Below, in pieces: positions 14,053 to 59,463 of a stretch of DNA of 64,000 nucleotides. The DNA is from an uncultured delta proteobacterium. GTDB lineage: Bacteria > Desulfobacterota > Binatia > UBA9968. Every line of letters starts with the position of its first letter. Positions within the stretch are counted from its first letter, which is position 1. The stretch covers positions 1 to 64,000 of the forward strand of contig CAWJZV010000017.1 in assembly GCA_963847445.1 (NCBI GenBank), written 5' to 3'. A program made the position numbers and the translations under genes. Below the pieces are notes generated by a model. The model saw only the letters and a program-made list of their open reading frames with translations. It did not search any database and was not told the origin of the DNA.

Positions 14053-14095
14053 TGTCTACTATTAGACAGTATTTGTTGTCGAGTACGCCTAAGCT
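14053..14095 (+). promoter_or_regulatory. Crp-family box with class II -10
   Basis: TGTCT-actatt-AGACA 14053-14068; TAAGCT 14090-14095 (box centre at -41.5). Confidence 0.7.
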
Positions 14096-14379
14096 CGCCA
14101 AGACTGCAGAGGTTCGAGTTGCCGCGCTAAGTTGATTGGCAAGCGTCGGGACGGCGATTCTGGTGTGATTTCTCTCGATGCCGATTCAATAACCAATGAT
14201 TGAGGCAAATTCTGTGGACGCCCCGGAGAGCAGCGCTAAATGCGATTCCTGCGGTCATCGCTATTGTAAAGTTTGCGAGGAGTGCTCGGTTTCGCAACGC
14301 TACTCGGACTATTGGGTTTGTCACAGCTGTGCATCGTTAAGTCTGTGGATTCCATGTGCGCAATAAAAAGGAGGTTCGT

Positions 14380-14730
14380 ATGGATTGGGACAAAGTCAAG
14401 TTAGGCGGCTGGAGCGCTGCCGGTGGCGCGGTTCTAGCGATGATCGTCGGATTCAATTGGGGTGGTTGGGTGACCGGCGGGACTGCCGAAGTCTTGGCCA
14501 AGGAGATCGCCGAAAATGCAGTGGCCAAACGTTTTGCGCCGAGCTGTGTCGCGCGGTTTAACCTAGATGCGAATAAGGAACAGAAGCTCAAGGAGTTCAA
14601 GGCGAAGGATGCTTGGGACGGGCAGAAGTTCGTCGAAGAGCAGGGCTGGGCGACGCTGCCTGGAGAAGAACGACCCGACAGCAAGGTTGCCGAGGGCTGT
14701 GCCAAGAGTCTCATGGAAGCAAAATCGTAA
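14380..14730 (+). CDS. Membrane-anchored hypothetical protein
   Basis: AGGAGG RBS; N-terminal TM GFNWGGWVTGGTA; two Cys (CVARF...GCAK). Confidence 0.75.
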   Translation: MDWDKVKLGGWSAAGGAVLAMIVGFNWGGWVTGGTAEVLAKEIAENAVAKRFAPSCVARFNLDANKEQKLKEFKAKDAWDGQKFVEEQGWATLPGEERPDSKVAEGCAKSLMEAKS

Positions 14731-14799
14731 ATGGTGGCCGCGCATTCGGCTCGCAGTCAAACCGCCGGCCGGATGAACAGCGGCGATAGGAGAGTCCCA

Positions 14800-14919
14800 A
14801 TGGGCGATAAGAGCAAGAAGGATAAAGACAAACACCAGAAGCAGAAGCAAATACAACAGCAAACAGCGGCAAAAAATGCTCTCGCCAAGCAGCCCGCGAA
14901 AGTCTTCAAAACCAAGTAG
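14800..14919 (+). CDS. Small basic peptide (39 aa, MGDKSKKDKDKHQKQK...)
   Basis: AGGAG RBS, Lys/Gln-rich ORF. Confidence 0.55.
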   Translation: MGDKSKKDKDKHQKQKQIQQQTAAKNALAKQPAKVFKTK

Positions 14920-15113
14920 GGTCTATCTTTATGAACGTCGTCTGATACAATCAAATTCACGATTACTGACCTAACGTTCACATAGGACAAACTCGGTTCA
15001 ATTCTCCCGAGTCTCGATGAGGCGGTACCTACGGTCACCGCCTCTTCGCGTTTTTGGGCTGGATCACGACTAACAACCGCTAGGCGATACCGCCGGCAAG
15101 GAGCACTCTCCCA

Positions 15114-17399
15114 TTGCCACAGGATCTTAAAAACGCCGCGATCAACCGCATCGCCTTTATCGGCAACTACTTGCCGCGCCAGTGCGGCATCGCCACGTTC
15201 ACCACCGACCTGTGCGAAGCGATCGCCGCCGAGCATGGCGACACGACGTGCATCGCCGTGCCCGTCAACGACATCGAAGGCGGCTACGCCTATCCCGCGC
15301 GAGTGCGTTTTGAACTGACCGAGAAGGACATCGATTCTTATCGCCGCGCCGCCGACTTTCTGAACATCAACAAGGTCGACCTGGTCAGCCTGCAATTCGA
15401 ATATGGCATCTTCGGCGGCCGGGCCGGCAGCCACATCCTGACTCTGCTGCGCGATCTGCGCATGCCGATCGTGACGACGCTGCACACGATCTTGCGCGAA
15501 CCCGATGCGGATCAACGGCGCGTGTTGACTGAAGTCGCCGGCCTGTCGGATCGCTTGGTCGTGATGAGCGAGCGCGGCGCGGAGTTCCTGCAAGAGATCT
15601 ATCAGGTCGCGCCGGAGAAGATCGATCTGATCCCGCACGGCATTCCCGATGTGCCGTTTGTCGATCCGAGTTTTCACAAAGACCTGTTTGGCGTCGAAGG
15701 CAAGATCGTCTTGCTCAGCTTCGGCTTGCTCTCGGCCAACAAGGGCATCGAGAATGTCATCGCCGCGTTGCCGGCGATTCTGGCCAAGCATCCGAACGTG
15801 GTCTACTTCATCGTCGGCGCGACCCATCCGCATGTGCTGCGGCACGACGGCGAAACCTATCGTTTGTCGCTGCAATGGCTGGCGCAGGAGAAAGGCGTCG
15901 AAGGCCACGTGATCTTCTACAACCGCTTTGTCAGCCTGGAAGAACTTGTCGAGTTCATCGGCGCGGCGGACATTTACATCACGCCTTATCTCAACCCGGC
16001 GCAGATCGTCTCGGGCACGCTGGCCTACACGCTGGGCGCGGGCAAGGCGGTGATTTCGACGCCCTACTGGTACGCCGAAGAGATGCTGGCTGACGAACGT
16101 GGCGCGCTGGTGCCGTTCCGCGACCCGGCGGCGTTGGCCGAGCAAGTGATCGATCTGTTGGACAACGAGGCCAAGCGCCACGCCATGCGCAAGCGCGCTT
16201 ATCTTTTCGGGCGGGAGATGATCTGGCCGCAGGTGGCGCGCCGCTACATGGAGAGTTTTGAGCGCGCCCGCGCCGAACGGCGCCACTTTACTCCGCCCGG
16301 TTTTGCCGTCAAAGCGCTCGATAAACGCCCGGGCGAGCTGCCGCCGCTCAAACTCGATCACTTGCGCCACATGACGGACGATACCGGCATGTTGCAACAC
16401 GCGATTTTCACGGTGCCCAATTATCAGGAGGGCTACACCATCGACGACAATGCGCGCGCGCTGATCGTGAGCGCCTTCTTGGAAGAACTCGGCAATGTCG
16501 AGACTGCCGGTCTCATGTCGCGTTATCTCGCCTTCGTCTGGTACGCCTTCAATGCGAAGACCGGACGCTTTCGCAACTTTATGGACTATCAGCGCAACTG
16601 GCTGGAAGAAAACGGCTCCGACGACAGTCATGGCCGCACGTTGTGGGCGCTGGGCACGGTGTTGGGCCGCTCCAACACGCCGGCGCTGCAAAGCATGGCC
16701 GGCTGGGTGTTCGAGCAAGCGTTGCCGGCGATTCTCGACACGACCAGCCCGCGGGCCTGGGCATTCGCGCTGATCGGCATCCACGAGTATCTTCAGCGTT
16801 TTGCCGGTGACCGAACCATCACTCAGGTGCGTGAAGAGTTGGCTGGGCGGTTACTCGATTTATATCGCAAAACTCGAACCGGCGCTTGGCACTGGTATGA
16901 AGAATCGCTGACCTATTGCAATGCCGCGCTGCCGCACGCCCTGCTCATGTGCGGTCATGGCATCCCGAATGGCGACATGACCGAAGCCGGACTGGAGTCG
17001 CTCCGTTGGCTGGCAGACTTACAGCGCGCTGACGAGGCTGGCGGCCATTTCGTGCCCATCGGCTCCAACGGTTTTTACCAACGCGGCGGTGAGCGTGCCC
17101 GGTTCGATCAGCAGCCGGTCGAGGCTCAGGCCATGGTATCGGCTTGCCTCGAAGCGCACCGGATCACGGCGGACAAGAGCTGGCACAAAGAAGCGCGCCG
17201 CGCCTTCGACTGGTTTCTCGGCCGCAACGATCTCAACCTGCCGATCTACGATCCGACCACCGGCGGTTGCCGAGACGGTTTGCATGCCGACCGTGCGAAC
17301 GAAAATCAGGGCGCGGAATCCTCCCTGGCTTTTCTCCAGGCCGTACTGGAACTGCGCTTGGCTGAGACCACATTGGCATCCGTGGAAATAGGAGCTTGA
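15114..17399 (+). CDS. GT4 glycosyltransferase fused to a C-terminal helical glycosidase-like domain
   Basis: IAFIGNYLPRQCGIATF, FGLLSANKGIE; C-terminal GYTIDDNARAL, FDQQPVEA, NENQGAES. Confidence 0.9.
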   Translation: MPQDLKNAAINRIAFIGNYLPRQCGIATFTTDLCEAIAAEHGDTTCIAVPVNDIEGGYAYPARVRFELTEKDIDSYRRAADFLNINKVDLVSLQFEYGIFGGRAGSHILTLLRDLRMPIVTTLHTILREPDADQRRVLTEVAGLSDRLVVMSERGAEFLQEIYQVAPEKIDLIPHGIPDVPFVDPSFHKDLFGVEGKIVLLSFGLLSANKGIENVIAALPAILAKHPNVVYFIVGATHPHVLRHDGETYRLSLQWLAQEKGVEGHVIFYNRFVSLEELVEFIGAADIYITPYLNPAQIVSGTLAYTLGAGKAVISTPYWYAEEMLADERGALVPFRDPAALAEQVIDLLDNEAKRHAMRKRAYLFGREMIWPQVARRYMESFERARAERRHFTPPGFAVKALDKRPGELPPLKLDHLRHMTDDTGMLQHAIFTVPNYQEGYTIDDNARALIVSAFLEELGNVETAGLMSRYLAFVWYAFNAKTGRFRNFMDYQRNWLEENGSDDSHGRTLWALGTVLGRSNTPALQSMAGWVFEQALPAILDTTSPRAWAFALIGIHEYLQRFAGDRTITQVREELAGRLLDLYRKTRTGAWHWYEESLTYCNAALPHALLMCGHGIPNGDMTEAGLESLRWLADLQRADEAGGHFVPIGSNGFYQRGGERARFDQQPVEAQAMVSACLEAHRITADKSWHKEARRAFDWFLGRNDLNLPIYDPTTGGCRDGLHADRANENQGAESSLAFLQAVLELRLAETTLASVEIGA

Positions 17400-18367
17400 T
17401 GAACAATCAACACGCCGAACTTTTTCGCCGTCATAAACGCAATCCGATCTTGACCGCCGCCGATTGGCCCTATCCCGTCAATAGTGTTTTCAACCCGGGC
17501 GCGACTCTGTTGCCCGATGGAACGACTCTATTGCTCTGCCGCGTCGAAGATCGCCGGGGCCATTCCCACTTTACTGTCGCTCGCTCCGATAACGGCGTGG
17601 ATAACTGGCGCATCGAATCTCGGCCGACGCTGCAGGCCAACCCGGAAAACTTCCCCGAAGAAGTGTGGGGCATTGAAGACCCGCGTATCACGTATCTGCC
17701 GGAATTAAGCAAATATGCGGTTGTCTATACCGCTTTCTCACGCGATGGTCCGGGGGTCTCTCTAGCGCTCACTGAGGACTTTCATAGCTTCGAGCGCTTC
17801 GGCGTCATTATGTCACCGGAAGATAAAGATGCGGCATTATTGCCCCATCGTATCGGCGGGCAGTGGGTGTTGATCCATCGGCCGGTCAGCGCGCCGCGGG
17901 CGCACATGTGGATGTCATTTTCTCCGGACTTGCGCCACTGGGGCAATCACAAGCTGATGCTGGAAGCGCGCAAAGGCTCGTGGTGGGACGCGAATAAAAT
18001 CGGTCTTTCGCCCCCGCCCATCGAAACCGCGCAGGGCTGGCTGGTGATATACCATGGAGTGCGGCAAACTGCGTCCGGTTCGATCTACCGGCTTGGCCTT
18101 GCGCTGTTCGATTTGCAGGCGCCGGAGCGCTGCACAAAGCGGGGTAATGAGTGGATTTTCGGGCCGCAAGAAGGCTACGAGCAACGCGGCGACGTGGATA
18201 ATGTGGTTTTCCCCTGCGGTTACACGATTGCGCCGGACGGCGACACCATCCATCTCTACTACGGCGCGGCGGATACCAGCATTGGCTTGGCAACGGGGAG
18301 CATTCACGCCATGCTCGAATGGCTTGGACGTCATGGCGACCAACCGACGGCAATTCTAAGTGACTGA
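17396..18367 (+). CDS. GH130 family glycosidase/mannoside phosphorylase
   Basis: VFNPGA, GIEDPRI, EDKDAAL, IHRP, VVFPCG, YYGAADT. Confidence 0.9.
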   Translation: MMNNQHAELFRRHKRNPILTAADWPYPVNSVFNPGATLLPDGTTLLLCRVEDRRGHSHFTVARSDNGVDNWRIESRPTLQANPENFPEEVWGIEDPRITYLPELSKYAVVYTAFSRDGPGVSLALTEDFHSFERFGVIMSPEDKDAALLPHRIGGQWVLIHRPVSAPRAHMWMSFSPDLRHWGNHKLMLEARKGSWWDANKIGLSPPPIETAQGWLVIYHGVRQTASGSIYRLGLALFDLQAPERCTKRGNEWIFGPQEGYEQRGDVDNVVFPCGYTIAPDGDTIHLYYGAADTSIGLATGSIHAMLEWLGRHGDQPTAILSD

Positions 18368-20405: not shown

Positions 20406-20551
20406 TTTTTCCTATCGGTCCGATCTTTTGGCAGCCAATTCGCGAGGCTATTGCAGCAAAACTGGGGCGCAGCGAGTTGGCTGGTAACGCCGTCTTGGCG
20501 TGCGGCGAGTCATGCATCCCATCCCAGAAAACTGTTTTTTTATTCCCTCAT

Positions 20552-20594
20552 TGTCTCTTTTTAGACAGCAAAACCGAGTGGCCGAACATATCTT
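20552..20594 (+). promoter_or_regulatory. Crp-family box with class II -10
   Basis: TGTCT-cttttt-AGACA 20552-20567; TATCTT 20589-20594. Confidence 0.7.
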
Positions 20595-20639
20595 CGAAGC
20601 AGTTAAATGGGCGGGTTGTCACTCACGCCGGTTGGCGGT

Positions 20640-21993
20640 TTGTTCAATCGGTCTCGCACTATAGCCAATTCAAGTCCCTGGTTAAAAAAAACTTGGTCAA
20701 CGATCTGGTGATCCGTGAGACGATCATCGATGGCAATTTGAAGGGCGCGGCGGTCAAGGATATTTTCACGCCGGAAAAACTAAAGGAGATTTCTCCCGAC
20801 TTGCTTGCCAGCAAAAAACTGGTTTCCTTCGAAACAGTAAGAGTGGTGGACCCCGGTCTTACGGCAGAGCTTGAAGCGGCGAACGTACCGTTTAGGGGAG
20901 AACTGACGAGCAATTGGCTGCCGACTCTGTTGTCTTGGGTGGTTCCCGTGGCGCTGTTTTTTCTGATGTGGAACTATCTGGGCAAGAAGATGGGGTCGGC
21001 TGGCGGCGGCTTGATGCAGATCGGCAAGAGCAAGGCGAAAGTCTACATCGAGAAAAAAACCGGAGTTACCTTCGCGGATGTTGCGGGCATCGACGAAGCC
21101 GAAGAAGAAGTCGCTGAAGTTGTCGGTTTTCTCAAAGACCCGGAAAAGTATCAAAGATTGGGCGGTCATATTCCCAAGGGCGTCTTGATCGTCGGACCGC
21201 CGGGTACGGGGAAAACTCTGCTCGCCCGCGCCGTGGCCGGCGAGGCTGGCGTGCCATTCTTCAGCCTGACCGGTTCTGACTTTGTCGAGATGTTTGTCGG
21301 CGTCGGCGCGGCGCGGGTGCAGGGATCTATTCATGCAAGCGGCTGAAGCATGCGCCGAGCATCATCTTCATCGACGAGCTCGATGCCATCGGCAAAGCCC
21401 GCGGCGTGAGTACGGTCACCGGCAACGACGAGCGCGAGCAGACTCTCAATCAACTCCTGGCCGAGATGGACGGCTTCGATCCGAATCAAGGAGTCATCAT
21501 CATGGCCGCCACCAACCGGCCGGAAATCCTCGACGCCGCGCTGCTCCGTCCCGGCCGCTTCGATCGGCAGATTTTAGTGGATCGTCCCGATATCAAAGGC
21601 CGGACTAAGATTCTCGAATTGCATGCCAAGAAGGTAAAGCTCTGCGCCGGATCTTGACCTAGCTAGTCGTCTCTCGAAGGACCGCGCCATGCGACGTTCC
21701 TGATGGTGCCCACCCAGAGTCCCAGAGAGTACAGCGAGGAAACCGCCCGGCAGATCGATGAAGAGGTTAAACAAATATTGTCAGAAGCGCATGGCAGGGC
21801 GCGCAATATCCTAGCCGCGCATCGCACGGCGCTTGATGAATTGGCCGGGCTGTTGCTGGAAAAGGAAGTTATCGATCGGCCAGCGCTGCAAGCGATCCTA
21901 AAAGTACGGAGCATCGACAGCCTCAAAGAAAAAAGACGCGCCGCGGACCTCTCCGAAAGCGAAAGCCATCAGAGCAACGCCGAACGGGAATAG
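20640..21993 (+). pseudogene. ftsH: FtsH remnant (AAA domain present; first TM and M41 protease core missing)
   Basis: [39 protein letters not shown]; then a jump to the C-terminal YSEETARQIDEEV with no HExxH. Confidence 0.8.
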
Positions 21994-24281: not shown

Positions 24282-26690
24282 TCAGGAAAACGAGCGAGCC
24301 GCGAGTTTTTCACCGGGAGAATAACCTCTTGGCGCGTCGGGCTCGAGGGCCAGCCGCAAGGCTTCGTCCGCGGTTTTTAAAAACTCAAAGTGGATACCCT
24401 CGCGGCCCGCGGGGGAGATCTCTTCCAAATCTCTTCGGTTTAAATCGGGCAGCAAAATACGAGTAATCCCGGCGCTTTTTGCCGCCAGCATTTTTTCTTT
24501 TATCCCTCCTACCGGCAAAACCAAGCCGCGCAGACTGATCTCGCCGGTCATCGCGACATCTTTGCTGATGCACCGTCCGGTCAGCAGTGAAACGAGCGCG
24601 ACGAATAGCGTGATCCCGGCACTGGGGCCGTCCTTGGGGACAGCGCCGGCGGGAATATGAATGTGCAGGTCATTGTTCTTGAAGATCGCGGGATCGATGC
24701 CCAGGGTCTCGGCGCGTGACTTGACCAGACTCAAAGCGGCCTGGGCGCTTTCCTTCATGACATCGCCCAACTGGCCGGTCAGAATTAACTTGCCGTCTCC
24801 CGCCATCCTGGTCGCTTCGACAAACAAAATGTCGCCGCCAAAAGGCGTCCAGGCCAGGCCGGTGGCGACTCCAGGTAAACTGGTGCGCAGCGCGATCTCG
24901 TTAAAAAATTTCTGCGGGCCCAAATAGGCATGGAGAGATTCCCGAGTGACGGTAATCGGTTCGGTAAAACCATCCGCGAAGCGCGTTGCCACACCGCGGC
25001 AGACCGCTGCTAGCGCACGCTCAAGTTGGCGCACCCCAGCTTCGCGCGTATAGGAGCGAATCACTTCGCGAATCGTCTCGTCGGGAAAATTGATCTCTCC
25101 CGGTTTGAGTCCGTTTTCGGAGATCTGCCGGGGAATCAAATATCCCTTGGCAATGGAAAGCTTTTCTTCCTCGATGTAGCCCGGCAATTCCAAGATCTCC
25201 ATTCGGTCGCGCAGCGGGCCTGGAATGGTATCGAGCACATTCGCCGTGGCGATGAACAATACCTGTGTTAGATCGAAAGGCACGCCCAGGTAATGGTCCT
25301 GAAAGGTTGAATTTTGCGAGGGATCGAGGACCTCCAGCAACGCCGCGGACGGGTTGCCATGAAAACTCGCACTGAGCTTATCGACTTCATCGAGCATGAA
25401 AACGGGATTTCGACTGCCGGCTTTTTTGATCCCTTGAATGATGTTCCCCGGTAGCGCGCCGATGTAGGTGCGCCGATGGCCGCGAATATCCGCCTCGTCA
25501 TGGACGCCGCCGAGACTCTGCCGGACAAACTTGCGATTCATCGCCCGAGCGATGCTTTGGCCCAGAGAGGTCTTTCCTACTCCCGGAGGGCCGACTAAGC
25601 ACAGGATGGGACTGTTCCCATCTGGCTTGAGTTTACGAACGGCGAGAAATTCGATAATGCGCCTTTTCACCTTTTCGAGACCGTAATGGTCGGCGTCGAG
25701 AATCTCGCGAGCTTTTGGCAGATCGATTTCTTCCTTGGTCAGAACGCTCCAAGGCAGCTCTACCAGCCAATCGAAGTAGGTTCTCAACAACGAGTGTTCA
25801 GGCGCCATCTCAGGAATCCGCTCGAAACGAGTCAGTTCTTTTAGCGCCTCCTTCTCGACCTCGGGCGGCATCTTTGCCTCGTAAAGTTTTTTTCTCAGCT
25901 CTTCGATTTCAACGCCCTTGCCATCGTCCTCGCCCAGCTCTTTTTGAATCGCCTTCAATTGTTCGCGCAGGAAATATTGGCGTTGGGACTTATCCATGGA
26001 GTCGCGAGTTTCGTCGCGCATTTTTTTGCTGAGTTCCAGCAGTTCGATCTGCCGCGCGAGCTTTTCCGAAACCTTCTGGGCACGCGTCTCCGGGTCAAGC
26101 GTCGCCAGAATTTCCTGCTTCTCGGCGACCGGCAAGTCCAGTGTGGAAGCGATCATATCGATTAGCGATAACGGATCTTCGATCCTTTCGATCATCGCTC
26201 GGAGTTCGTTCATCGGTTCCGGGAATAACGATAGGGCCCGGGCTGATTCTTGGCGCAGATGTAAGATGCGCGCCTCAAACTCCTTGGTCTGCGGTGTCTG
26301 TTCCTCAACCATGGTGACCCGCGCAATGAGCACCGGATCGGTCTCAATATATTCGGCGACTTCGAAACGGCGGCGGCCTTGGACGATGACCTGGCGCCGA
26401 CCGTCCGGCAGGGTAAACATGCGCAAGACGTCGGCCGCGGTACCGACTTCGTACAAGTCCTTGGGTTGAGGCGCCTCCATGTTCGGGTCGCGTTGCACGA
26501 CGAATCCGATGGGAATCTGTTGGCGCACGGCTTCTTCGACGGCTTGGAGCCTTGCCGGGCGGCCAACCATGAGCGGCATGACCATGGATGGATAGAGCAC
26601 CCGGTTGCGCATCGGTATGATGATCAATGCGCCGGCGGGGATATTGAGACGCGATTTTGCTTTCGGGGTTTCTGTCTCTTCAGCACTCAT
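24282..26690 (-). CDS. lon: Lon protease
   Basis: Lon N domain, GPPGVGKTS, PKDGPSAG, GGIKEK. Confidence 0.95.
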   Translation of the reverse strand: MSAEETETPKAKSRLNIPAGALIIIPMRNRVLYPSMVMPLMVGRPARLQAVEEAVRQQIPIGFVVQRDPNMEAPQPKDLYEVGTAADVLRMFTLPDGRRQVIVQGRRRFEVAEYIETDPVLIARVTMVEEQTPQTKEFEARILHLRQESARALSLFPEPMNELRAMIERIEDPLSLIDMIASTLDLPVAEKQEILATLDPETRAQKVSEKLARQIELLELSKKMRDETRDSMDKSQRQYFLREQLKAIQKELGEDDGKGVEIEELRKKLYEAKMPPEVEKEALKELTRFERIPEMAPEHSLLRTYFDWLVELPWSVLTKEEIDLPKAREILDADHYGLEKVKRRIIEFLAVRKLKPDGNSPILCLVGPPGVGKTSLGQSIARAMNRKFVRQSLGGVHDEADIRGHRRTYIGALPGNIIQGIKKAGSRNPVFMLDEVDKLSASFHGNPSAALLEVLDPSQNSTFQDHYLGVPFDLTQVLFIATANVLDTIPGPLRDRMEILELPGYIEEEKLSIAKGYLIPRQISENGLKPGEINFPDETIREVIRSYTREAGVRQLERALAAVCRGVATRFADGFTEPITVTRESLHAYLGPQKFFNEIALRTSLPGVATGLAWTPFGGDILFVEATRMAGDGKLILTGQLGDVMKESAQAALSLVKSRAETLGIDPAIFKNNDLHIHIPAGAVPKDGPSAGITLFVALVSLLTGRCISKDVAMTGEISLRGLVLPVGGIKEKMLAAKSAGITRILLPDLNRRDLEEISPAGREGIHFEFLKTADEALRLALEPDAPRGYSPGEKLAARSFS

Positions 26691-27118
26691 GATTGCTTCC
26701 TTATCTGGATGATGAGCAAGCCATCCTGGAACGATATTTCGCCGACCGATAGAGGATAGTCCCCTCCCACCAGCCTGAGTCGCCGCTCAAAACGACCGAG
26801 AGGAATTTCCCATAGCTTGAGTTCGCCGTCGTGACAGCATTGTGGCAGCGGCCGTTCGCCGGCGATGCGAAGATCGCGTCCCTCCAGCCGTACTTCGATC
26901 CGGTCAACTGCGACTCCAGCGAGGGCCGAAATCACCCACAGGTTCTCGTCGGTCTCGACGACGTTAACCGGCGGTTCCCAGCTTGGCGTTCTGCCGTGCT
27001 GTGCCCGGTACTGCGATGCGGTGTCGATTTGGAGAAAATTACGATGAATCCGCTCCGCTTGCTGAAGTAAATCATTGGCTCTCCGCCAAACGATAAAATC
27101 CCAATCTTGCGCTGACAT
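26687..27118 (-). CDS. Hsp20/alpha-crystallin small heat-shock protein
   Basis: WEPPVNVVET, EIPLGRFERRL, DGLLII; overlaps the lon start. Confidence 0.85.
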   Translation of the reverse strand: MSAQDWDFIVWRRANDLLQQAERIHRNFLQIDTASQYRAQHGRTPSWEPPVNVVETDENLWVISALAGVAVDRIEVRLEGRDLRIAGERPLPQCCHDGELKLWEIPLGRFERRLRLVGGDYPLSVGEISFQDGLLIIQIRKQS

Positions 27119-27213
27119 AGAATCTAAACCTCCGCCTGCGTATTCAGTCTTCTCCAGGGAAGCGTACCTCAGGAATTTCAAGTTCGCTAGGTTCGCGAAA
27201 ATTTTTTGCCGAA

Positions 27214-27256
27214 CGTCCAATATTAGACAGTAATCCGGCAACCGTTCAGGTATGTT
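27214..27256 (+). promoter_or_regulatory. Crp-family box with class II -10
   Basis: CGTCC-aatatt-AGACA 27214-27229; TATGTT 27251-27256. Confidence 0.65.
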
Positions 27257-27359
27257 AATCAATTAGCGCTGATCTCATCGGAGGACTTAGCTTGCCTGAA
27301 ATTCTTCAAGTAAGTCTCCTCCAGTTTCCCTTCTAACCGGTCCAACCAAGGAGGTTGCC

Positions 27360-27680
27360 ATGTTCAGTCGAAACGTCAGTTATAAACTCAAGGCCAAGAG
27401 TGCCGCGGAGTTTACCCGTATTGTCGAGGGAGAAGTCATTCCCCTGCTGAGAAGACAAAAAGGCTTCGACGATGCGATCAGTTTCATCGCGCCGGAACGC
27501 AATGAAGCGATCACGATCAGTCTGTGGGATAAAAAAGAGGACGCGGAGGCCCATATCACGAAGACCCATCCGGAGATTTTGAAGGCGCTAGCGAGCGTGA
27601 TTGAAGGTTCTCCCCGAGTGGAGTCCTTCGAGATCGGTAACTCGACCTCACATCAGATTGCCGCTAGTCCGGTCAATTAA
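27360..27680 (+). CDS. ABM-like (dimeric alpha-beta barrel) protein
   Basis: AGGAGG RBS; PLLRRQKGF, ITISLWD. Confidence 0.7.
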   Translation: MFSRNVSYKLKAKSAAEFTRIVEGEVIPLLRRQKGFDDAISFIAPERNEAITISLWDKKEDAEAHITKTHPEILKALASVIEGSPRVESFEIGNSTSHQIAASPVN

Positions 27681-27953: not shown

Positions 27954-28637
27954 ATGGCGATTCAACAAACACCCCAAGCCGACCTGTTCAAGCAACAACT
28001 GCGCGATTCATTGCAGCGCGAGACGGCGAACTCTCGCGCCGTTAAGGTCGCGCGACACGCCAACGTTTACAACTGCGGCGACCAGGACGAGATGGTCTAC
28101 TTCGTCGAGAGCGGCCAGGTCAAACTTCTGATGCTCTCCACGGAAGGCAAAGAGTGTCTTTTGGCCATCCATAGCGGCGGCGATATCTTCGGCGAACTCT
28201 GTCTCTCCGGGTTAGGCGCGCGCTTGGAAACCGCGACGGCGATGAAAGCGACGACGTTAAAACAAATTCCCTGCTCGCAGTTCTTTGTCCGTCTCCGCCG
28301 CGACTCGCTGTTTGAAGGTTTCGTGCGCTATCTCGCTGTGCGGATCGCCGACCAGCAGCAAATCATCGCCAATCTCGTGACCGTGGATAGCGAACAGCGG
28401 CTCGGCCAGACCTTGTTACAATTGGCCCGCACCATGGGCAGGAAAGATCCGCGCAGCATCCGCATCGAGTTGAAAATTACCCATGAAGAGCTGTCCGAGA
28501 TGGTCGGCACGACGCGGCCGCGCATCAGTCTGTTCATGCAACGGTTTCACAATCTGGGTTTAGTCGAGACCAACAAAGATCACTTTTTCATTATCAAAGA
28601 AAATAAACTCAGCGATTACCTGGCCCAGATCGCCTAG
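27954..28637 (+). CDS. Crp/Fnr family regulator (copy 1)
   Basis: cNMP-fold GDIFGELCL; HTH ITHEELSEMVGTTRPRIS. Confidence 0.9.
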   Translation: MAIQQTPQADLFKQQLRDSLQRETANSRAVKVARHANVYNCGDQDEMVYFVESGQVKLLMLSTEGKECLLAIHSGGDIFGELCLSGLGARLETATAMKATTLKQIPCSQFFVRLRRDSLFEGFVRYLAVRIADQQQIIANLVTVDSEQRLGQTLLQLARTMGRKDPRSIRIELKITHEELSEMVGTTRPRISLFMQRFHNLGLVETNKDHFFIIKENKLSDYLAQIA

Positions 28638-28899: not shown

Positions 28900-28943
28900 C
28901 TCATAGTCATTGTGAAAAGAAAATAGAAAGAAGGTACCTGATT

Positions 28944-29093
28944 ATGAGCCTGCTGTTGTTGATCGTTTTAGTGCTGTTGCTGGTCGGTGGTTTGCCCAAC
29001 TGGGGCTATCACAGCTATGGCTTCGCGCCGTCCGGTTTCGCCGGCATAGTGCTGCTGGTCGTGGTTGTTATGCTCCTGACCGGCCGGCTCTAA
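28944..29093 (+). CDS. DUF3309-family small membrane protein (49 aa; not in ORF track)
   Basis: MSLLLLIVLVLLLVGGLPNWGYHSYGFAPSGFAGIVLLVVVVMLLTGRL. Confidence 0.85.
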   Translation: MSLLLLIVLVLLLVGGLPNWGYHSYGFAPSGFAGIVLLVVVVMLLTGRL

Positions 29094-29221
29094 AAGGGGT
29101 CGCAAGCAAAATCACAAGGTAAGCCAATTCAGGGCGCAGGGTGTCACTCCAGAGGTTACTTGGAATTTGTCCCGGTAAGCCTGATTCGACCCTGCTAATC
29201 AATGCAACCGAGGAGGTTGAG

Positions 29222-29452
29222 ATGAAAAAGTTATTGTTGTTGTTAGGAGTGCTTTTGATCGGTGTCAGTCAAAGCGGCTGCATGTTATTGGGCGGGGCGG
29301 CGCTGGGAGCCATCGGGACAAGCGCGGGTTACGAGATCAACGCCAATAGCAAGATGGACCAGCTGGAATCTGATTACAAAGCCGAAAGAATATCACGCAG
29401 CGAATACCTGGCCCGCAAGTCGCAGCTAGAAAAAGGCTCGATCGTCTATTAG
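29222..29452 (+). CDS. Small glycine-rich lipoprotein (copy 1)
   Basis: GAGGAGG RBS; lipobox-like QSGC; paralog at 31401. Confidence 0.8.
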   Translation: MKKLLLLLGVLLIGVSQSGCMLLGGAALGAIGTSAGYEINANSKMDQLESDYKAERISRSEYLARKSQLEKGSIVY

Positions 29453-29597
29453 GAGCGATGATGATTCAAGGCTTCTATCTATGACGCCAGAATTAGACAG
29501 CAATTTACTTCAACCTAGTCGATGATTCGACAGTTATCGGCAGCAGCATTAACCGGATCCTTGCCAACGGATCCGAACACTGAAAAGGAGACGGTGT

Positions 29598-29810
29598 ATG
29601 TGGAACAAAGATGAGATCAAAGGTAAAGGCAAACAAATTTCCGGTGCGATCAAGGATAAAGCTGGGGAATTGATCAAGGACCGCAAACTCGAAGCCAAAG
29701 GCGAAGCTGAGCGGGTGGCCGGCAAGCTCCAGGAAAAGAGCGGCAAAGCACGCCGGAAAACCGGTGAGGCGGTACAAAAGGTCGGTAAGGCGATTGCCGG
29801 CAAAGTATAA
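29598..29810 (+). CDS. csbD: CsbD family stress protein
   Basis: MWNKDEIKGKGKQISGAIKDKAGELIKDRKLEAKGEAE. Confidence 0.9.
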   Translation: MWNKDEIKGKGKQISGAIKDKAGELIKDRKLEAKGEAERVAGKLQEKSGKARRKTGEAVQKVGKAIAGKV

Positions 29811-30219
29811 TCCAGTCATTCTCGGAGTAGTTAATAACGATGGCAGGCGGCAGAGAAACGTTGGTTAAATCCATTCACTCCCGCTGGGCATTGAACGGAG
29901 CTACGCGAAAGGCGTGCAATGTGATTTATGCGCGAACCACGGATCCGGCGGCATGATCGCCGCCTTGATCGGGCGCAAGGGCCGATGAAAGCCTGGCATG
30001 CACAACGCCAAGATCGTCACAGGGTAGATTATTCTGCCACGCTCATCAACTCGACGCTGTTTGGGTCGCCGGCTTCTGACGAAGGCTGGACGCGTCGCGA
30101 CAGGCACCCCGGCGAGCAGATTGAGCAAATGAACCAGCTTGCAGAACTAATGCCAACTGGTCGCCACTGACCAAGAGATCATCAGCGCACCGCGTCAAGT
30201 CTTTCTTTTCAGCGGCCAT

Positions 30220-42525: not shown

Positions 42526-43518
42526 ATGAGAAGATTACGATCAGTTCTATCGCCGGTGATTACGGCAGCGGGTGTCTTGGCTCTGTCGGGTGTCGGCTTG
42601 GCTCAGACACCGAGTGGTTCGCACCGTGAGGCGAGCGCCAGGGCGCATGAATTCATGTCCAGTGCGCCTTGTCCACTGGCCAGGGTTACCAAAGAGAAAA
42701 TTACCGAGGAACAAGCGCGAGATCTGGCCCAAGGGTTTGCGGACAAAAACTGGAACGGCTTCAAAGTGGTGCGGCCGCTCAGCTACGGCGGCGGCTATAC
42801 TACCATGTGCTACCAGACAGCCAGCGCCTTTGTCGCACCTCCTCTAGCGGGCAACGCCGCGCCGGCACGTCCTCTAGCAGCCAACGCCGCGCCGACACGC
42901 CCTCTGGTCCTATACTCCGTCGAGTATTCCATGGACCTGAAAAATCCCGCGGGTGAAACGCGCAATCTTTGCGTCGATCAGTACGGATTCATCACGGAGT
43001 TCTGCGGCGATTTCGCCATGGCGGGCGCAACCGGTCCGATCGGCCCAGCTGGCGCGATGGGCCCTGCCGGCCCCATGGGAGCGCAAGGTCCAGCCGGAAC
43101 AGCGGGCGCGCAAGGTCAATTGGGCTCGGTAGGCCCCCAAGCCCAATCTGGCGCGGCAAAGCCATGGTCCACGTTCAGGGATTTCTTGTTCGATTTCGAT
43201 AAGTCGGAGATTCGATCTAACGAGACCAAGCATGTAACTGACATCGCGGCCTACATGAAGCAGCATCCAGCCGTCAATGTCGGAATCGACGGTCACACTG
43301 ATCCGCGCGGCACCGATGCTTTCAACCAAGGGCTGAGCGAGCGGCGTGTCAACGCCATTAGCGAGGCGCTGGTTAATGCCGGAGTGTCCGCAAGCAGGAT
43401 CAAGACAGGCGCCTTCGGTGAGTCGCAGCCCAAGTGCAGTGCGCCCACCGAGCCTTGCTGGCAGAGCGACCGCCGCGTCGAGGTGCTGATCGGCAACGCG
43501 CAAACAGCAAGCAGATAA
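42526..43518 (+). CDS. Secreted OmpA-family protein with collagen-like G-X-Y linker
   Basis: Signal peptide; GATGPIGPAGAMGPAGPMGAQGPAG; FDFDKS, GHTDPRG..FNQGLSERR, DRRVE. Confidence 0.85.
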   Translation: MRRLRSVLSPVITAAGVLALSGVGLAQTPSGSHREASARAHEFMSSAPCPLARVTKEKITEEQARDLAQGFADKNWNGFKVVRPLSYGGGYTTMCYQTASAFVAPPLAGNAAPARPLAANAAPTRPLVLYSVEYSMDLKNPAGETRNLCVDQYGFITEFCGDFAMAGATGPIGPAGAMGPAGPMGAQGPAGTAGAQGQLGSVGPQAQSGAAKPWSTFRDFLFDFDKSEIRSNETKHVTDIAAYMKQHPAVNVGIDGHTDPRGTDAFNQGLSERRVNAISEALVNAGVSASRIKTGAFGESQPKCSAPTEPCWQSDRRVEVLIGNAQTASR

Positions 43519-46789: not shown

Positions 46790-46838
46790 ACTACCCTGCA
46801 GCAAGCTGGGGGGAAGCGAACGCATTTCGGGTGAACTT

Positions 46839-46917
46839 GTCGGGTGGTTGGAGGCGCGAAGCGCCGATACTCACCGTTCGGAATGATGGGTATCGCTAGC
46901 GCTCCACCCATCCTACG
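46839..46917. repeat. Inverted REP-like doublet (GTAG family)
   Basis: Minus strand cgtaggatgggtggagcgctagcgatacccatc facing plus strand gtcgggtggttggaggcgcgaagcgccgatactcacc; flanked by gcaagctg palindromic remnants at about 46793 and 46928. Confidence 0.65.
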
Positions 46918-47056
46918 TCGGAATCACACGGCAAGCTGCGGAGAATTAACCCGTAGCGACGAAATTAATTTGTCCTGAGAATGCGGGAATGACATGCTGC
47001 GGTTGTCAAAAAAGAAAAATTTGCCAGACTCGTTAGCTCAGTTCAGCGTTATCGGT

Positions 47057-50943: not shown

Positions 50944-51186
50944 ATTGATTATTAAACTAGTGTATCAGGGCAATTCACGCAGCCGACGCGTTAGATGTTA
51001 TTACCGCGGGAATATTCAAAGCTGTTTTCATGTTGGCTTAGGGCGCTCGGCGTTTTAGCTTGGATCGAATTTCTTCTGACTGCGTAATCGTTTACGGGCG
51101 GTCTCACCCCGCTTCTACCTGTAGAAAAAAAGCGCTCGCGAGTCAACGCGCGAGGTACGAGTTTGGCAATTTGTCTTTTTTGAAAC

Positions 51187-51202
51187 CGTCTAATTTTAGA
51201 CA
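51187..51202. promoter_or_regulatory. Crp-family box
   Basis: CGTCT-aatttt-AGACA upstream of 51286. Confidence 0.65.
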
Positions 51203-51285
51203 GCAATCCTTTTCAAGCAGCGTAAATGTATCAAGCCAGGCTCGATATTTTTGTCGCGATGGTTAGCGACTGGTTCGGAGGATAT

Positions 51286-51756
51286 ATGTTGATGCCGAGG
51301 AAAATACTGATTGTCGAAGACCGCGCCGATGTTCGCGATCTTCTCGGAGAGGCGCTAACCCTCTTGGGCTGGGAGACCATCCTCGCCGAGAGCGACCGGG
51401 AAGCGCTGGACAAACTTGAAAGCGAAATACCGAACGTCATTCTACTGAACATGCGAAAGCCGGAGAAGAACGGAATCAAGCTGGCAGCATCGCTCAAAGC
51501 ACATCCTGCTTACAAAAATATACCGATTCTTGCCGCGAGCGGGCAATCCCGTGGAGTGAGCCGAGAACGTTGTCTGGCGCTCGGCTTTGACGATTTCATT
51601 GCTAAACCGCTCGTGCTTCCCGAGCTCGAAATGCGCCTTACGAATATTTTGTCTGTGGAGAGACGAAAAACAATACGAGCAACAAGCCCTGTGAATCTCG
51701 AAACTAATCGCCGCGAACCAAGTTCGCGGGGCGCCAGTCGTCGGAGGGTCGCTTAG
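51286..51756 (+). CDS. Single-domain receiver protein lacking the phospho-Asp
   Basis: ILIVED...VILLNMRKP (D to N)...DFIAKP. Confidence 0.8.
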   Translation: MLMPRKILIVEDRADVRDLLGEALTLLGWETILAESDREALDKLESEIPNVILLNMRKPEKNGIKLAASLKAHPAYKNIPILAASGQSRGVSRERCLALGFDDFIAKPLVLPELEMRLTNILSVERRKTIRATSPVNLETNRREPSSRGASRRRVA

Positions 51757-51808
51757 TTATCGGTGTCAGATCGGCTATGTTCTGCGATGATGGAGCCGCA
51801 TGGAAGAA

Positions 51809-51995
51809 AAAAATCTCCCCTAGCCCCTCTTTTCCAAAGAGGGGAACCCGAAAACTCGCCGCGTCGCGAGCGGTTAATCTGAGTTTGTTGTGTATTTGAC
51901 ACCAGCCGTGTCCAGCCAAAACTTATGGATAATGATGAGTGTTTCAAAGGGGGATTGAAAGTCTCCCTTTGTAAAGGGAGATTTAGAGGGATTTT
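51809..51995. repeat. Inverted CCCCTTT-N-AAAGGGG palindromic elements (MITE/REP-like)
   Basis: aaaatctcccctagcccctcttttccaaagagggga ... tctccctttgtaaagggagatttagagggatttt. Confidence 0.7.
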
Positions 51996-54780: not shown

Positions 54781-55599
54781 ATGACCGACACTAATGCTAA
54801 AGCTCTACAGCAATTAAGAGACCTCGCCTCATATCCGTTACCGCAGTTGGAAAAGCTCGCGGCCAATCTGTCGATAAGACCATTCAAGACAAACAAAATT
54901 ATCTTCGATCAAAACGAGGACGCAAAGGTCGTTTATCTACTGCTATCAGGGGTCGTTAAGGTTTCTTACCTCCACAGCGATGAAAACCAAACGATAGTCA
55001 GTCTCCATCCGGCGGGCGAGTTTTTCGGTCTCGATGCGCTGATTCCCCAAATGAAGCATCCTTTCAGATGCGAAGCGTTCGAAAACTGCACGGTCGGTAC
55101 GATCAAGCCGCAAACCCTCGTTGAAATACTCCTGGGGATCTCCTATGAACCTTTCCTTCGGTGGCACACCGGGGCAATGAATGCCGGGCGAAAAATCTAC
55201 GTCCATTGCATCAAAGGCATTGGACTTGATCTGCGTAAACGTCTCGCTCTCGAACTCATGAATTTGGCCGATCGTTTCGGCAGGGCCGACGCTCGCGGGA
55301 TCGTGATTGATGTAAATATCAGTCATGAAGTCCTCGCCGGTATCGTCGGTGCGTCGCGCCAGCAGGTCACGGAACACCTCAATCAATTTGATCGTGAGAA
55401 GTGCATTTCAAGAGATGGACGTCGGATCATAATAAACGCGCAAAAACTTCGGCCGATCATAGAGAATCGGCGATCTAGTAAGAATCGTAAGCCGCTTGCC
55501 GTTTCACCGCGCACTCGTCCCAGTCTAAGCCGACCGTTTAGTCGAAAGTTTCGACGCTTTCGACGAGCCAGCTCGCTCTGCTCATCCGTGACGGATTAG
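54781..55599 (+). CDS. Crp/Fnr family regulator (RQ-type recognition helix)
   Basis: GEFFG; HTH ISHEVLAGIVGASRQQVTEHL; the C-terminal ~45 aa may be read-through. Confidence 0.85.
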   Translation: MTDTNAKALQQLRDLASYPLPQLEKLAANLSIRPFKTNKIIFDQNEDAKVVYLLLSGVVKVSYLHSDENQTIVSLHPAGEFFGLDALIPQMKHPFRCEAFENCTVGTIKPQTLVEILLGISYEPFLRWHTGAMNAGRKIYVHCIKGIGLDLRKRLALELMNLADRFGRADARGIVIDVNISHEVLAGIVGASRQQVTEHLNQFDREKCISRDGRRIIINAQKLRPIIENRRSSKNRKPLAVSPRTRPSLSRPFSRKFRRFRRASSLCSSVTD

Positions 55600-56433: not shown

Positions 56434-56656
56434 CATCATCAATTATCAATCGCCCGAACAGAGGTGTGACATGCGCACGGCAATGTTGATCGTCTTGATG
56501 ATTTGCTGCTGACCGCTGCACCGTCACTTGGCCTCCTGGTCGGTCGTAAGCTGACTACTTGCCGCGGCGGGCTCGAAGCGCAAATCGGCTCTACTTAACC
56601 AACATAACCGGGATCGGCCCTAAAGGCGCCGGTCTTGGAAACAGGGGAGGTGCTTT

Positions 56657-56875
56657 ATGCCTTTAATTCAACTCGTGGTGGTCCTGATCGTGGTGGGTGT
56701 GCTTCTTGGGCTGGTGAATCGTTACATTCCGATGGCAGGATCGATCAAGTCGATCCTGAATGGGGTTGTGGTCATCGGCGTAGTTCTGTGGCTGCTGAAT
56801 ATTTTCGGACTTTTCAATTCACTGTCGGCGATCCGGGTGGGCAAGCTGTCTTGGCTCGGCGCGATTGGCGCCTGA
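56657..56875 (+). CDS. Small two-TM membrane protein (Thivi_2564-like)
   Basis: GGAGG RBS; MPLIQLVVVLIVVGVLLGLVNRYIPMAGSIKSILN. Confidence 0.75.
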   Translation: MPLIQLVVVLIVVGVLLGLVNRYIPMAGSIKSILNGVVVIGVVLWLLNIFGLFNSLSAIRVGKLSWLGAIGA

Positions 56876-56940
56876 GTCGCGATAGGATCTCTGACTGCCG
56901 GTTGTGTAACCGATAGTCAGAGATCAAGAGATTGCCAGCC

Positions 56941-59368
56941 ATGTTGTTTTGGTCATTGCTGTTTCTCTTGCTTGTTCTAGCCGTTAGCCTATTGGACATT
57001 GCTTTCACTCCGGCACGCGCGCGAATCAGTTTGCCGGGGTTCCGTCGTCACACTCGCTGGGACTGGGCGACTTCCATTCCAACCGGGTTCAGACGTGTGC
57101 GAATGAGGGCTCTGGCGGCGGCTCGGGCAATCCGTGGTAGCCGCTTCGCCAAACGACAGTGGCAGAGAGGCGTCCTTAATCTTGTCGTTTGTTCAACGGT
57201 GATCATTACGACTCTAGTTTCAATCGGAGTTTATCACGTCAATTTTAACCGCAGCGATTTGCCTGACGTAGAAGCATTGGCCCGCTTTGAGTTTCCGACC
57301 ATCGGCACCGTCTACGACGCCGCCGGCCTGCCGCTCATTGAACTGGCAAAAGAGTACCGCAAGATCACCCGGTATAAGGACATTCCGCCGATTGTTCGCG
57401 ATGCCATCATCGCCGCCGAAGACAAGCGATTTTTCTCACATAGCGGGGTTGACTATGCGATCATTCCTCGCCTGCTGAGCAAAATCAGAATGCGCGCCTT
57501 TGGCGCCGGTCTGACTCGGATGGCAAGGGGAAGCGGCCAGTCCGGCGCTGCTGCCGCAAGGCGGCTCGACGATCACCCAACAGCTCGTGCGCGGTCATTT
57601 TCTCAAAAACCTGACGGCGAAGGAAAACAGCCACCAGCTGCAGTATGACGGCATGGTAGCGTGGGCGCTGTCTAAGCTGATCGGCGCGCGCACCGTCAAC
57701 ATGTTGGTTCGCAAGATCGAGGAGATTCGGCTCTCGTTGTGGATCGAAGAGGAGATGCAAAAGCGTTTCGGTTCGAAACGACAAGCTAAGGAAGAAATTC
57801 TCGCCCGCTACGCCAGCTTAATCTACATGGGAGACGGCCAGTACGGGTTCGCCACCGCAGCGCAATACTATTTTGGCCGGCCGCTGGCGAGGTTGACCGC
57901 CAATGACGCCGACCAGGCGGCGCTGCTCGCCGGTATCGCCAAGGCACCGCGTTACTACGCGCCCAACGCGAAGGATACCGAGCGAGTGCTGCGCCGCCGA
58001 AATCAAACCCTAAGCCTGATGGCCGCCAACGGTTTGATTTCCCAGGACCGTGCACGTGCCGCCGAGCAGCTCCCCATTGAAGTGATCGAGCGGCGCCAAG
58101 ACAAGCTGGGTCAGGCGCCTGCGGTCCTTGGAACGATCCTCCAGGAACTCAAAGGCCGAGGCGGCGCGGATCTCACTGCTGAAGATCTCTTTCAGGGGCG
58201 CATCCAGGTTTACTCGACGGTGGATGTCCGGGTGCAGCAAATTGCCAACCAAGCGCTGGAACGCGGCCTCGAACTTTACGAAAAACGACATCCCAGTGCC
58301 AAAGGGATAATCCAAGGTTCTGTCGTCGTGTTGCGCAACCACGATGCGAGCATCCTGGCCGAGACCGGCGGTCGGCAGTTCTACCAGGACCGCTCCGCCC
58401 GATACAGCGACTTTAACCGCGTCACCAAGTCCCTGCGGCAACCCGGGTCGACGATGAAGCCCTTCGCCTACCTGGCGGCCTTTCGCCAGGGAGGTTTCAA
58501 TCTCGAAACGATGGTTCCCGACGAACCGATCGGGGTTCGGGATGGCGAGAAACAGAGCACCAAATGGATCTCAAACTACGATCGACAATTCCGCGGCATG
58601 ATTCCGCTGCGCGAGGCGCTCGCAGAATCGAGCAACGCCGTGGCGATTTGGCTCACAGGGGAGATTGGCATTGGCAGTGTTCTGGCCACCTCACGCAGTC
58701 TAGGGGTGAAGACGCGGTTGCAGCCCTATCTGACCACGGCGTTGGGAGCGTCCGAAGTGAATTTGCTGGAGCTCGCCAATGCCTACCGCACCATGGCGTC
58801 GGGACTGTTCGCCGAGCCCTATGTGATCCGAAAAATCGTCCGCGAATCGGGCGAGGTGGTGGCTAAGGAAAAGGAGCGGTCAGCGGTCGCAGTCAACGAC
58901 CCGGCGCTCGCGCTGATTCAGGAAGGTCTGCGCGGTGTCGTGCGCATGCCCAGCGGCACGGCGCATACGCTTAACCCGAGCGTTTTCCCGATCGCGGTCA
59001 TGGGCAAGACCGGGACGACCAATGAGTTCAGGGATGCGCTCTTTGTCGGCTCGACCTTCGGCCCTGAAGGGATCACGGTCGCCGTTCGTGTCGGCTTTGA
59101 CGACAACCGTTCGCTCGGAACTGAAGAAACCGGCGGCAGGGTCGCGCTGCCGGTGTTCAGAGAACTGATGCTGCGAGTTTACCGCGACAAGCTGGTCGGG
59201 CCTGTGCCGCGGTTTCCAGCGCAAATGGAACAGAATATCAACGACTATCTCGCCGCCGGCTCGGTGCCTACCGGAGAATTCATGAGCGCTGTTAACTCTT
59301 CCCATCAATCGGCGCCGCTTGCGGTATGGGTCGAAGCCGGAAGCGCAACAGTGCAACGACAACCATAG
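56941..59368 (+). CDS. Class A penicillin-binding protein (transglycosylase-transpeptidase), frameshifted
   Basis: AAEDKRFFSHSGVD; RKIEE; RQPGSTMKP, SSN, KTGT. Confidence 0.85.
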
Positions 59369-59420
59369 AAGAATCGACCGGCTGTCCGTTCGCGCGGCGC
59401 GCAATAATTCTTGGCAAAAG

Positions 59421-59463
59421 TGTCTAATATTGGACAGAAACAGTTTTTGCGCCAGCCTAGGTT
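59421..59463 (+). promoter_or_regulatory. Crp-family box with class II -10
   Basis: TGTCT-aatatt-GGACA 59421-59436; TAGGTT 59458-59463. Confidence 0.7.

Follow-up and report, generated by a model that had tools for sequence, protein, structure and literature searches.

The stretch analysed here comprises 64,000 nucleotides from an uncultured delta proteobacterium of the Binatia (GenBank assembly GCA_963847445.1, contig CAWJZV010000017.1, positions 1 to 64,000 of the forward strand) and is called the window in what follows. It carries several copies of a palindromic box, TGTCY-N6-RGACA, together with two closely related genes for regulators of the CRP/FNR family, at 27954 and 32051. An earlier note on this DNA had reported such boxes at 14053, 20552, 27214, 51187 and 59421, with weaker ones at 37984, 39301, 40182 and 29484, and the observation of boxes is confirmed. 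The element as a whole is an oriented promoter module of about 60 bp, made of a T-tract, the sequence YGTYCAATATTRGACAG and a TAnnnT hexamer that begins 37 bp past the start of the box, and the box with this one fixed -10 distance marks about eight promoters of a stress-gene cluster. All accepted sites in the window are intergenic, as their description as intergenic or gene-upstream had it, and all are in + strand orientation with + strand genes downstream. Their flanks read alike, with a T-rich tract upstream, a G after the right arm and TAnnnT downstream, all copies pointing in the same direction.

The exact pattern TGTCYNNNNNNRGACA has three matches in the window (14053, 20552 and 59421) vs. 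a mean of 0.14, and none of 100 dinucleotide shuffles reached three. With one mismatch allowed, 27214, 37984, 51187 and 51650 join the exact sites, 27214 and 51187 being variants with C for T at base 1; by itself, this one-mismatch count is not significant in the window (7 vs. 4.32 expected, with 14 of 100 shuffles giving 7 or more). As for the whole genome of 7.19 Mb, it holds 11 exact matches to TGTCY-N6-RGACA, a number that alone is no evidence of genome-wide enrichment; the enrichment signal lies in the three AT-spaced exact copies inside 64 kb.

The 32051 protein was used as query to fetch 78 loci from other genomes (430,615 bases, encoded proteins 77-96% identical), hereafter the foreign loci, and a weight matrix was built from the sites in these loci only, the genome of the window serving as test set with a threshold of 20 bits. 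Fifteen sites exceed 20 bits in the 7.19-Mb genome. Six of them are clustered in the window (14053, 20552, 27214, 37984, 51187 and 59421), which represents 0.9% of the genome, a seventh is found at C17:74654, 10 kb beyond the window end, and the other eight are on eight other contigs. The five boxes first reported, three exact and two with one mismatch, obtained full-module scores of 22.3 to 49.9 bits. The group described as weaker was a mixed one: 37984 is strong, with the window maximum of 53.8 bits, while 40182 (18.6 bits, core 22.7) and 29484 (14.8 bits) are weak, the latter a degenerate half-site with a core of merely 5.7 bits because its left half is degenerate. In the closest relative, a full site of 32.0 bits occupies the place that corresponds to 29484 (L001, position 461; L038, position 5058). 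The fourth of these boxes, 39301, was rejected (core 8.0, module -11.6 bits), since it lies 22 bp before a - strand start codon, with no room for a promoter. The match at 51650 was also rejected, as a chance match: it is intragenic, has a GC-rich spacer and received model scores of -12.9 and -29.9.

Module 1 (14036-14096, + strand; 36.5 bits) has the exact box TGTCTACTATTAGACA at 14053-14068 and the -10-like hexamer TAAGCT at 14090-14095. The genes likely to come first behind it (14196-14730, + strand) are a Cys-rich open reading frame (ORF) of 56 amino acids (aa) at 14196-14366 and a putative membrane protein of 124 aa at 14356-14730, neither with a Pfam family; glycosyltransferase (GT4) and GH130 genes follow at 15114-18367. 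Homologues of the 124-aa protein are likewise preceded by a site in one foreign locus (cluster of 2) and in genome G173, and the orthologue of the 14053 site is kept in the same-genus genome G283 (contig C110), directly ahead of the syntenic block. Module 2 (20535-20595, + strand; 22.3 bits, core 12.6), again with an exact box (TGTCTCTTTTTAGACA, 20552-20567) and with TATCTT at 20589-20594, precedes an FtsH-like AAA protease gene (20693-21993, + strand) in three pieces, 20693-21346, 21406-21657 and 21703-21993; the AAA and Peptidase_M41 matches fall on separate ORFs, and site-preceded homologues are present in two foreign loci (cluster of 3). Besides this AAA/M41 protease split over three ORFs, the window holds a class A penicillin-binding protein (56932-59368) whose transglycosylase domain is spread over two overlapping ORFs, and both split genes may reflect sequencing-error frameshifts or true pseudogenes.

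Module 3 (27197-27257, + strand; 43.5 bits) combines the one-mismatch box CGTCCAATATTAGACA at 27214-27229 with TATGTT at 27251-27256, and both the site and the gene order behind it recur in foreign loci L038 and L061. Its first gene codes for a 106-aa ABM-like protein (27360-27680, + strand; weak ABM match, E 0.0037) with a cluster of four site-preceded homologues, followed by Crp paralog 1 (27954-28637, + strand; 227 aa, helix TTRPRIS), with cNMP_binding and HTH_Crp_2 domains. Paralog 1 lies about 690 nt downstream of the predicted start of module 3 and is therefore probably autoregulated. Divergent from the 27214 promoter, Hsp20-like and Lon protease genes occupy the - strand at 24282-27262. 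The weak module (29467-29527, + strand; 14.8 bits), with its half-site box ACGCCAGAATTAGACA at 29484-29499 and no TAnnnT at +37, is followed by a CsbD-like gene (29598-29762, + strand; E 2e-12), which heads a run of small genes (29598-32035) toward paralog 2. The five consecutive + strand ORFs directly upstream of paralog 2 (29928-30167, 30220-30747, 30784-31041, 31248-31631 and 31640-32035; 80, 175, 86, 127 and 131 aa) have no Pfam family at E ≤ 0.01. Crp paralog 2 itself (32051-32731, + strand; 226 aa, helix TTRPRVS) has the same domains, and the solved proteins that match it best are GlxR and mycobacterial Crp.

Module 4 (37967-38027, + strand; 53.8 bits), with box TGTTCAGTTTTGGACA at 37984-37999 and TAAGAA at 38021-38026, precedes a 116-aa LapA-domain membrane protein (38088-38438, + strand; LapA_dom E 2e-8, cluster of 2). 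Behind module 5 (40165-40225, + strand; core 22.7, module 18.6 bits; box GGTTCAGTATTGGACA at 40182-40197, TAACTA at +36), the stretch 40304-41331 (+ strand) codes for a 102-aa membrane protein, a 122-aa ORF and two dodecins (40938-41132 and 41116-41331); the dodecin match has an E value of 1e-26, and foreign locus L044 has a site ahead of a homologue of the 102-aa protein. Module 6 (51170-51230, + strand; 41.2 bits), with box CGTCTAATTTTAGACA at 51187-51202 and TAAATG at +36, is followed by a receiver-only response regulator (51259-51756, + strand; Response_reg domain), for which a later start codon is likely, as the ATG at 51226 precedes the predicted transcript start. Finally, module 7 (59404-59464, + strand; 49.9 bits) shows the exact pattern (TGTCTAATATTGGACA, 59421-59436) and TAGGTT at 59458-59463, and stands before a 98-aa protein with a signal-peptide-like N-terminus and no Pfam family (59564-59860, + strand). 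The four hexamers of modules 1, 2, 3 and 7 agree letter for letter with those reported before, each at +37.

Taken together, the genes behind the sites mostly code for short proteins without family, whose N-termini are in many cases of a membrane or signal-peptide-like kind. Sites outside the window precede genes for an OmpA-collagen protein, VIT1 and a sensor kinase. Two OmpA-domain proteins with collagen-like Gly-X-Y repeats are encoded in this genome, one in the window (42526-43518) and one at G000:C7:140237-140914, the C7 copy standing behind one of the genome's strongest sites (54.6 bits). Sites in the foreign loci are followed directly by genes such as that of the regulator (cluster of 4) and those of ABM-like proteins and sensor kinases; judged by initial residues alone, CarD-like, desaturase-like, CsbD, dodecin, superoxide dismutase-like and SufB-like proteins are also encoded in this first position. 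Going by the family names, this gene set would resemble a general stress or dormancy response.

Concerning the regulators, paralogs 27954 and 32051 are 83% identical, share the helix TTRPR(I/V)S and are the only RPR-type genes of the genome. Three of its proteins have an HTH_Crp_2 domain above the Pfam cut-off, all inside the window, the third being a 272-aa Crp-like protein (54781-55599, + strand) with helix ASRQQVT and 25% identity to paralog 1, which is not of the RPR type. The two paralogs belong to the CRP/FNR family by their N-terminal domain (PF00027, E 4.7e-12 and 1.4e-13, above the curated cut-off) and by their C-terminal domain (PF13545, E 1.9e-13 and 7.7e-15), and align over their full length with solved regulators (GlxR and mycobacterial Crp, E about 1e-23; C. 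hydrogenoformans CooA-1, 1e-16). The protein family numbers 4407 clusters at E ≤ 1e-10, with only generic names among the best 120 listed. As for the orthologues in the 78 foreign loci, 74 helices have the form GTTRPRIS and 8 the form GTTRPRVS. Of 79 distinct orthologues, 78 have Cys67 and 76 have Cys82, two almost invariant cysteines of the sensor domain.

When CRP is bound to DNA, its R180 recognises the G of TGT, and E181 and R185 recognise the GA that follows. The alignment with GlxR indicates that the Arg of R180 is kept in the RPR-type regulators, while the E181 position is Pro, the R185 position is Leu and a new Arg stands at 182 (Thr in CRP). These Pro, Arg and Leu substitutions are predicted to keep TGT and to change the next two bases; the half-site does keep TGT, and its next two bases are changed to CC, TC or CT. 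RPR-type regulators also have a conserved acidic loop, GDQDEM, which we take to be placed where CRP and FNR carry activating region 3.

The foreign loci come from metagenome-assembled genomes (MAGs) whose records are labelled Candidatus Binatia, 'delta proteobacterium', Acidobacteriota (Blastocatellia, Pyrinomonadaceae), Syntrophobacteraceae, Heliomicrobium and others. A loose box pattern matched 108 times in them, with an extended context that was nearly always the same. The consensus of these 108 distinct sites has a T-tract 13 to 7 bp upstream of the box, YGTYCAATATTRGACAG as the box plus the next G, and A-A two and three bases beyond that G. The box itself, YGTYCAATATTRGAC, with C instead of T as first base in about half of the sites and a strongly conserved AT-rich centre, CAATATTG, is the most conserved portion of the module, and the symmetry of its two 7-bp half-sites agrees with binding by a dimer. 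Counted from the box start, T is found at offset 37 in 63 of the 108 sites, A at 38 in 80 and T at 42 in 79.

Since orientation had first been set by the T-run and the hexamer together, a possible source of bias, the spacing test was redone with the upstream T-run alone. Under this orientation, TAnnnT begins at +37 in 47 of 106 foreign sites, vs. 7 at +38, 4 at +36 and at most 4 at every other offset within 28-47; in the opposite orientation, only 2 of 106 sites have it at +37. In the genome of the window, 18 sites have a core of at least 18 bits; with the box as the only guide to their orientation, TAnnnT falls at +37 in six of them and at any other offset in no more than two. The genome-wide matrix scan with -10 spacing statistics that the earlier note had proposed as a test thus gives a spacing beyond chance. 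In the same 47 foreign and 6 own sites, the box centre lies 29.5 bp upstream of the first base of TAnnnT, which corresponds to the centre of -41.5 given before, now with the same value in the foreign sites, provided that the hexamer is taken as -12 to -7. On this assumption, the box covers -49 to -34 and the T-tract about -61 to -55, and the conserved G at -33 and A at -30 match the G and the last A of the -35 hexamer TTGACA; the consensus from -35 to -30 is C-A-G-C/A-A-A, with at most three of six positions matching TTGACA.

The explanation that we favour, and that we hold to be probable, is that the two RPR-helix Crp paralogs bind the box and, from there, would activate class II promoters. 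A paralog dimer on YGTYCAATATTRGACA, centred at -41.5, would activate a promoter of the housekeeping sigma factor in the class II manner, with TAnnnT as -10 and a remnant of a -35 in which the G at -33 and the A at -30 are the conserved G and A 3' of the box, while the T-rich tract at about -61 to -55 would be the site of the alpha C-terminal domain upstream of a class II activator. Class II activation is consistent with the constant spacing, the poor -35 and the T-tract found upstream. The putative regulon would consist mainly of small membrane, secreted and stress-type proteins (CsbD, LapA-domain protein, dodecins, FtsH-like protease, OmpA-collagen protein, VIT1) and would also take in a response regulator and both regulator genes, and hence positive autoregulation. 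The paralogs' binding, an activating instead of a repressing effect, their contacts with RNA polymerase and the signal to which they would respond are predictions from this arrangement.

The geometry also bears on whether the same Crp paralogs might bind the box as repressors, blocking the -35 region until a signal arrives. The box, from -49 to -34, does overlap the -35 position, and proteins of the CRP/FNR family are capable of repression too (PMC545781). A distance to the -10 fixed to the base pair in many unrelated promoters is, however, what contact with RNA polymerase would lead one to expect and is needless for a repressor, and promoters with at most three of six -35 positions should be weak unaided; we consider repression unlikely.

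The box and the regulator are co-inherited. At least one module above 20 bits lies within up to 3 kb of the regulator in 64 of the 78 foreign loci, a circular count, given that the model was trained on the same loci. A site starts 15-61 bp past the crp stop codon in 36 of the 73 loci with a complete regulator gene, and in nine loci a site is found up to 900 bp upstream of crp. Loci of Blastocatellia, with regulators 79-81% identical, bear the same module. The regulator was found in none of 120 other genomes sampled across the phylum, 3 of 150 of the class and 9 of 40 of the order, all nine in one family of 18 genomes, and it is this patchiness that makes its presence or absence informative. 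MAGs whose labels place them in different phyla share regulators of 77-96% identity, yet the regulator was found in only 3 of 150 genomes of its own class.

In the sample of 40 genomes of the order, the strict pattern GTYYANTWTTRGACAG, with some perfect palindromes counted on both strands, was found in seven of the nine regulator-bearing genomes (53 hits) vs. three of the 31 regulator-less ones (4 hits); these genomes are related and not independent, the MAGs are incomplete, and no statistical test is offered for the counts. The pattern read backwards, used as control, had no hit in all 41 genomes. As for the genomes reached via the foreign loci, the strict box is present 4 and 16 times in two labelled as Acidobacteriota, 14 times in a 'delta proteobacterium' and not at all in one labelled as Heliomicrobium, with no hit of the control pattern in any of them. 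The co-occurrence of the box with RPR-helix Crp genes, which had also been put forward as a test, is therefore borne out in this sample.

Concerning which protein would be linked to the box, the proposal that it is the target of the Crp paralogs of this region stands, on comparative grounds, for the RPR types 27954 and 32051, while 54781, with helix ASRQQVT, is more poorly co-distributed and is probably not the factor for the box. Another co-inherited regulator, be it 54781 (helix RQQV) or a non-Crp factor, might nevertheless bind it: 54781 is encoded in the same window and has an HTH_Crp_2 domain, and co-occurrence cannot separate genes that always travel together. Of the 40 genomes of the order, five were found to have the 54781 type, two of these five being without a box, and the type is missing from seven box-bearing genomes, two of them with 15 and 6 hits; moreover, in 36 of 73 loci the box directly adjoins the RPR-type gene itself. 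Such a regulator seems to us improbable, and somewhat more so than repression by the paralogs.

The same loci speak to the idea that the palindromes are not protein sites at all, and would rather be chance occurrences, RNA hairpins or terminators, or a promoter cassette copied without a dedicated factor. A T-rich run does follow the box on the - strand, and one of six folds (27214, - strand, a longer hairpin) beats its shuffles, at -14.2 kcal/mol (z -3.0). The other five folds are ordinary (z -1.7 to +0.6), and in 36 loci the upstream gene is a + strand crp, so that there is no - strand transcript to terminate. Chance is excluded by the shuffles, the spacing in the foreign sites and the survey of 40 genomes, and the box, rather than another segment, is the module's most conserved part. 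We regard this last alternative as very improbable.

Several observations weigh against activation by the two paralogs at class II promoters. The effector pocket is non-canonical: the conserved phosphate-binding Arg is followed by Leu/His-Glu-Thr and not by Ser/Thr. Three sites of the window lack the final T of TAnnnT or have the hexamer one base nearer (TAAGAA at +37 for 37984, TAAATG at +36 for 51187 and TAACTA at +36 for 40182). Regulator-bearing genomes G137 and G287 are without a strict box, and regulator-less G128, G279 and G285 have one site each, all five being MAGs that are 92-100% complete; the dependence among related genomes noted above is a further point on this side. Moderate conservation across genes and phyla extends to the 20 positions that separate the box from the -10, which read CCGAGTCAGCG in many sites, e.g. 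with A-A at -31/-30, C-C at about -23/-22 and G at -15, and the plain class II model does not explain this conservation, which may reflect a second contact or the descent of the promoters from a common cassette.

A broader view, which we offer only tentatively and consider possible rather than likely, is that the regulator, together with a promoter cassette of about 60 bp, makes up a self-contained switch for general stress or dormancy that has spread horizontally, and in which the conserved stretch behind the box would mark a second contact. If true, the cassette would be common to uncultured soil lineages (Binatia, 'delta proteobacteria', Acidobacteriota and others), and the role that alternative sigma factors play elsewhere would fall to a Crp-type activator with more than 75% identity across phyla.

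The neighbourhood had been called an island, and it is indeed a variable accessory cluster, but its GC content does not distinguish it. The same-genus genome G262, which has neither the regulator nor the box, matches the window only to about 5.7 kb, besides weak matches of common genes. In G283, where the regulator is present, synteny extends from about 1 to 22 kb. The cluster of G173 is rearranged and compact, at about 7 kb, and contains regulator, CarD-like, desaturase, phosphoglucomutase and ABM-like genes. A gene for a single-module non-ribosomal peptide synthetase (C-A-T-TE, 1359 aa) is located at 7781-11860, with a PPK2 gene nearby (6145-6987), and this stretch of about 6-12 kb is not among the listed matches in G283, which is syntenic on both sides of it. 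Short stretches of 35-90 bp (51806-51850, 51957-51995, about 1229-1313, 12780-12930 and 46837-46925) have further copies, 77-100% identical, on many contigs in each of the five same-genus genomes searched; those near 51.8-52.0 kb hold small G/C-rich inverted repeats and resemble intergenic repeats of the REP (repetitive extragenic palindromic) type.

Metatranscriptome contigs of relatives (88-99% alike) cover small shares of the window. Behind adapter letters, a contig of run X3 starts at about 27289, some 20-26 nt past the start predicted near 27263, and one of run X2, from the same study, starts at 27296, though contigs cannot show transcript starts; other contigs span the weak 29484 box. 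In the contigs of the ice, soil and sediment runs X1-X5, word depth, which is no measure of expression, is high on the DUF3309 gene, the 103-aa ORF at 29141-29452 and the CsbD gene (28920-29830).

None of the box strings searched for was found in the literature covered, and as far as literature searches reach, the regulator, the box and the regulon appear to be undescribed in print. They would provide a candidate regulator, a binding site and a first regulon for lineages known almost only from metagenomes, and many small proteins without family would gain a context, that of co-regulation with stress genes of the CsbD, Hsp20, Lon and FtsH types. The changed helix (R-P-R), paired with a changed half-site (TGTCC), is also a data point for the recognition code of the CRP/FNR family.

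At class II promoters of Escherichia coli, CRP and FNR bind sites centred at -41.5. The system described here shares with them the 16-bp core of two 5-bp halves and a 6-bp spacer, the centre at -41.5, the poor -35, the A/T-rich tract upstream and a regulator that joins a sensor of the cyclic nucleotide-binding (cNMP) type to a C-terminal helix-turn-helix. It differs from them by its half-site (TGTCC, TGTTC or TGTCT vs. TGTGA or TTGAT), by its helix (R-P-R-V/I-S-L vs. R-E-T-V-G-R), by its non-canonical effector pocket and by its putative regulon, of stress and envelope genes rather than catabolic or anaerobic ones.

The CO-sensing activator CooA, also of the CRP family, has the site TGTCGGCNNGCCGACA (PMC545781), with which the box shares only the outer four bases on each side, TGTC...GACA; the inner bases are GGC/GCC in CooA sites vs. 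CAA/TTG here. The form TGTCA-N6-CGACA, which the earlier note had ascribed to CooA, was not found in print by the search made for it, which gave only the consensus from Desulfovibrio and R. rubrum (PMC545781). No coo genes are among those scanned in the window or behind sites; with these inner bases and this gene content, the sites are not members of a CooA regulon.

The motif reported for MrpC of Myxococcus xanthus, another member of the CRP family, from chromatin immunoprecipitation sequencing is TGTYN8RAC (PMC4320627), and the box fits it exactly, the comparison being one of site motifs alone. A starvation- or stress-type programme with autoregulation, here a prediction, would be a further likeness. 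MrpC differs in that its motif, as the same paper presents it (PMC4320627), is a loose one over hundreds of promoters, whereas the box has the AT-rich centre CAATATTG and a fixed position in the promoter. As a kind, the system proposed here is a known one, that of a Crp/Fnr-type activator with the textbook class II mechanism.

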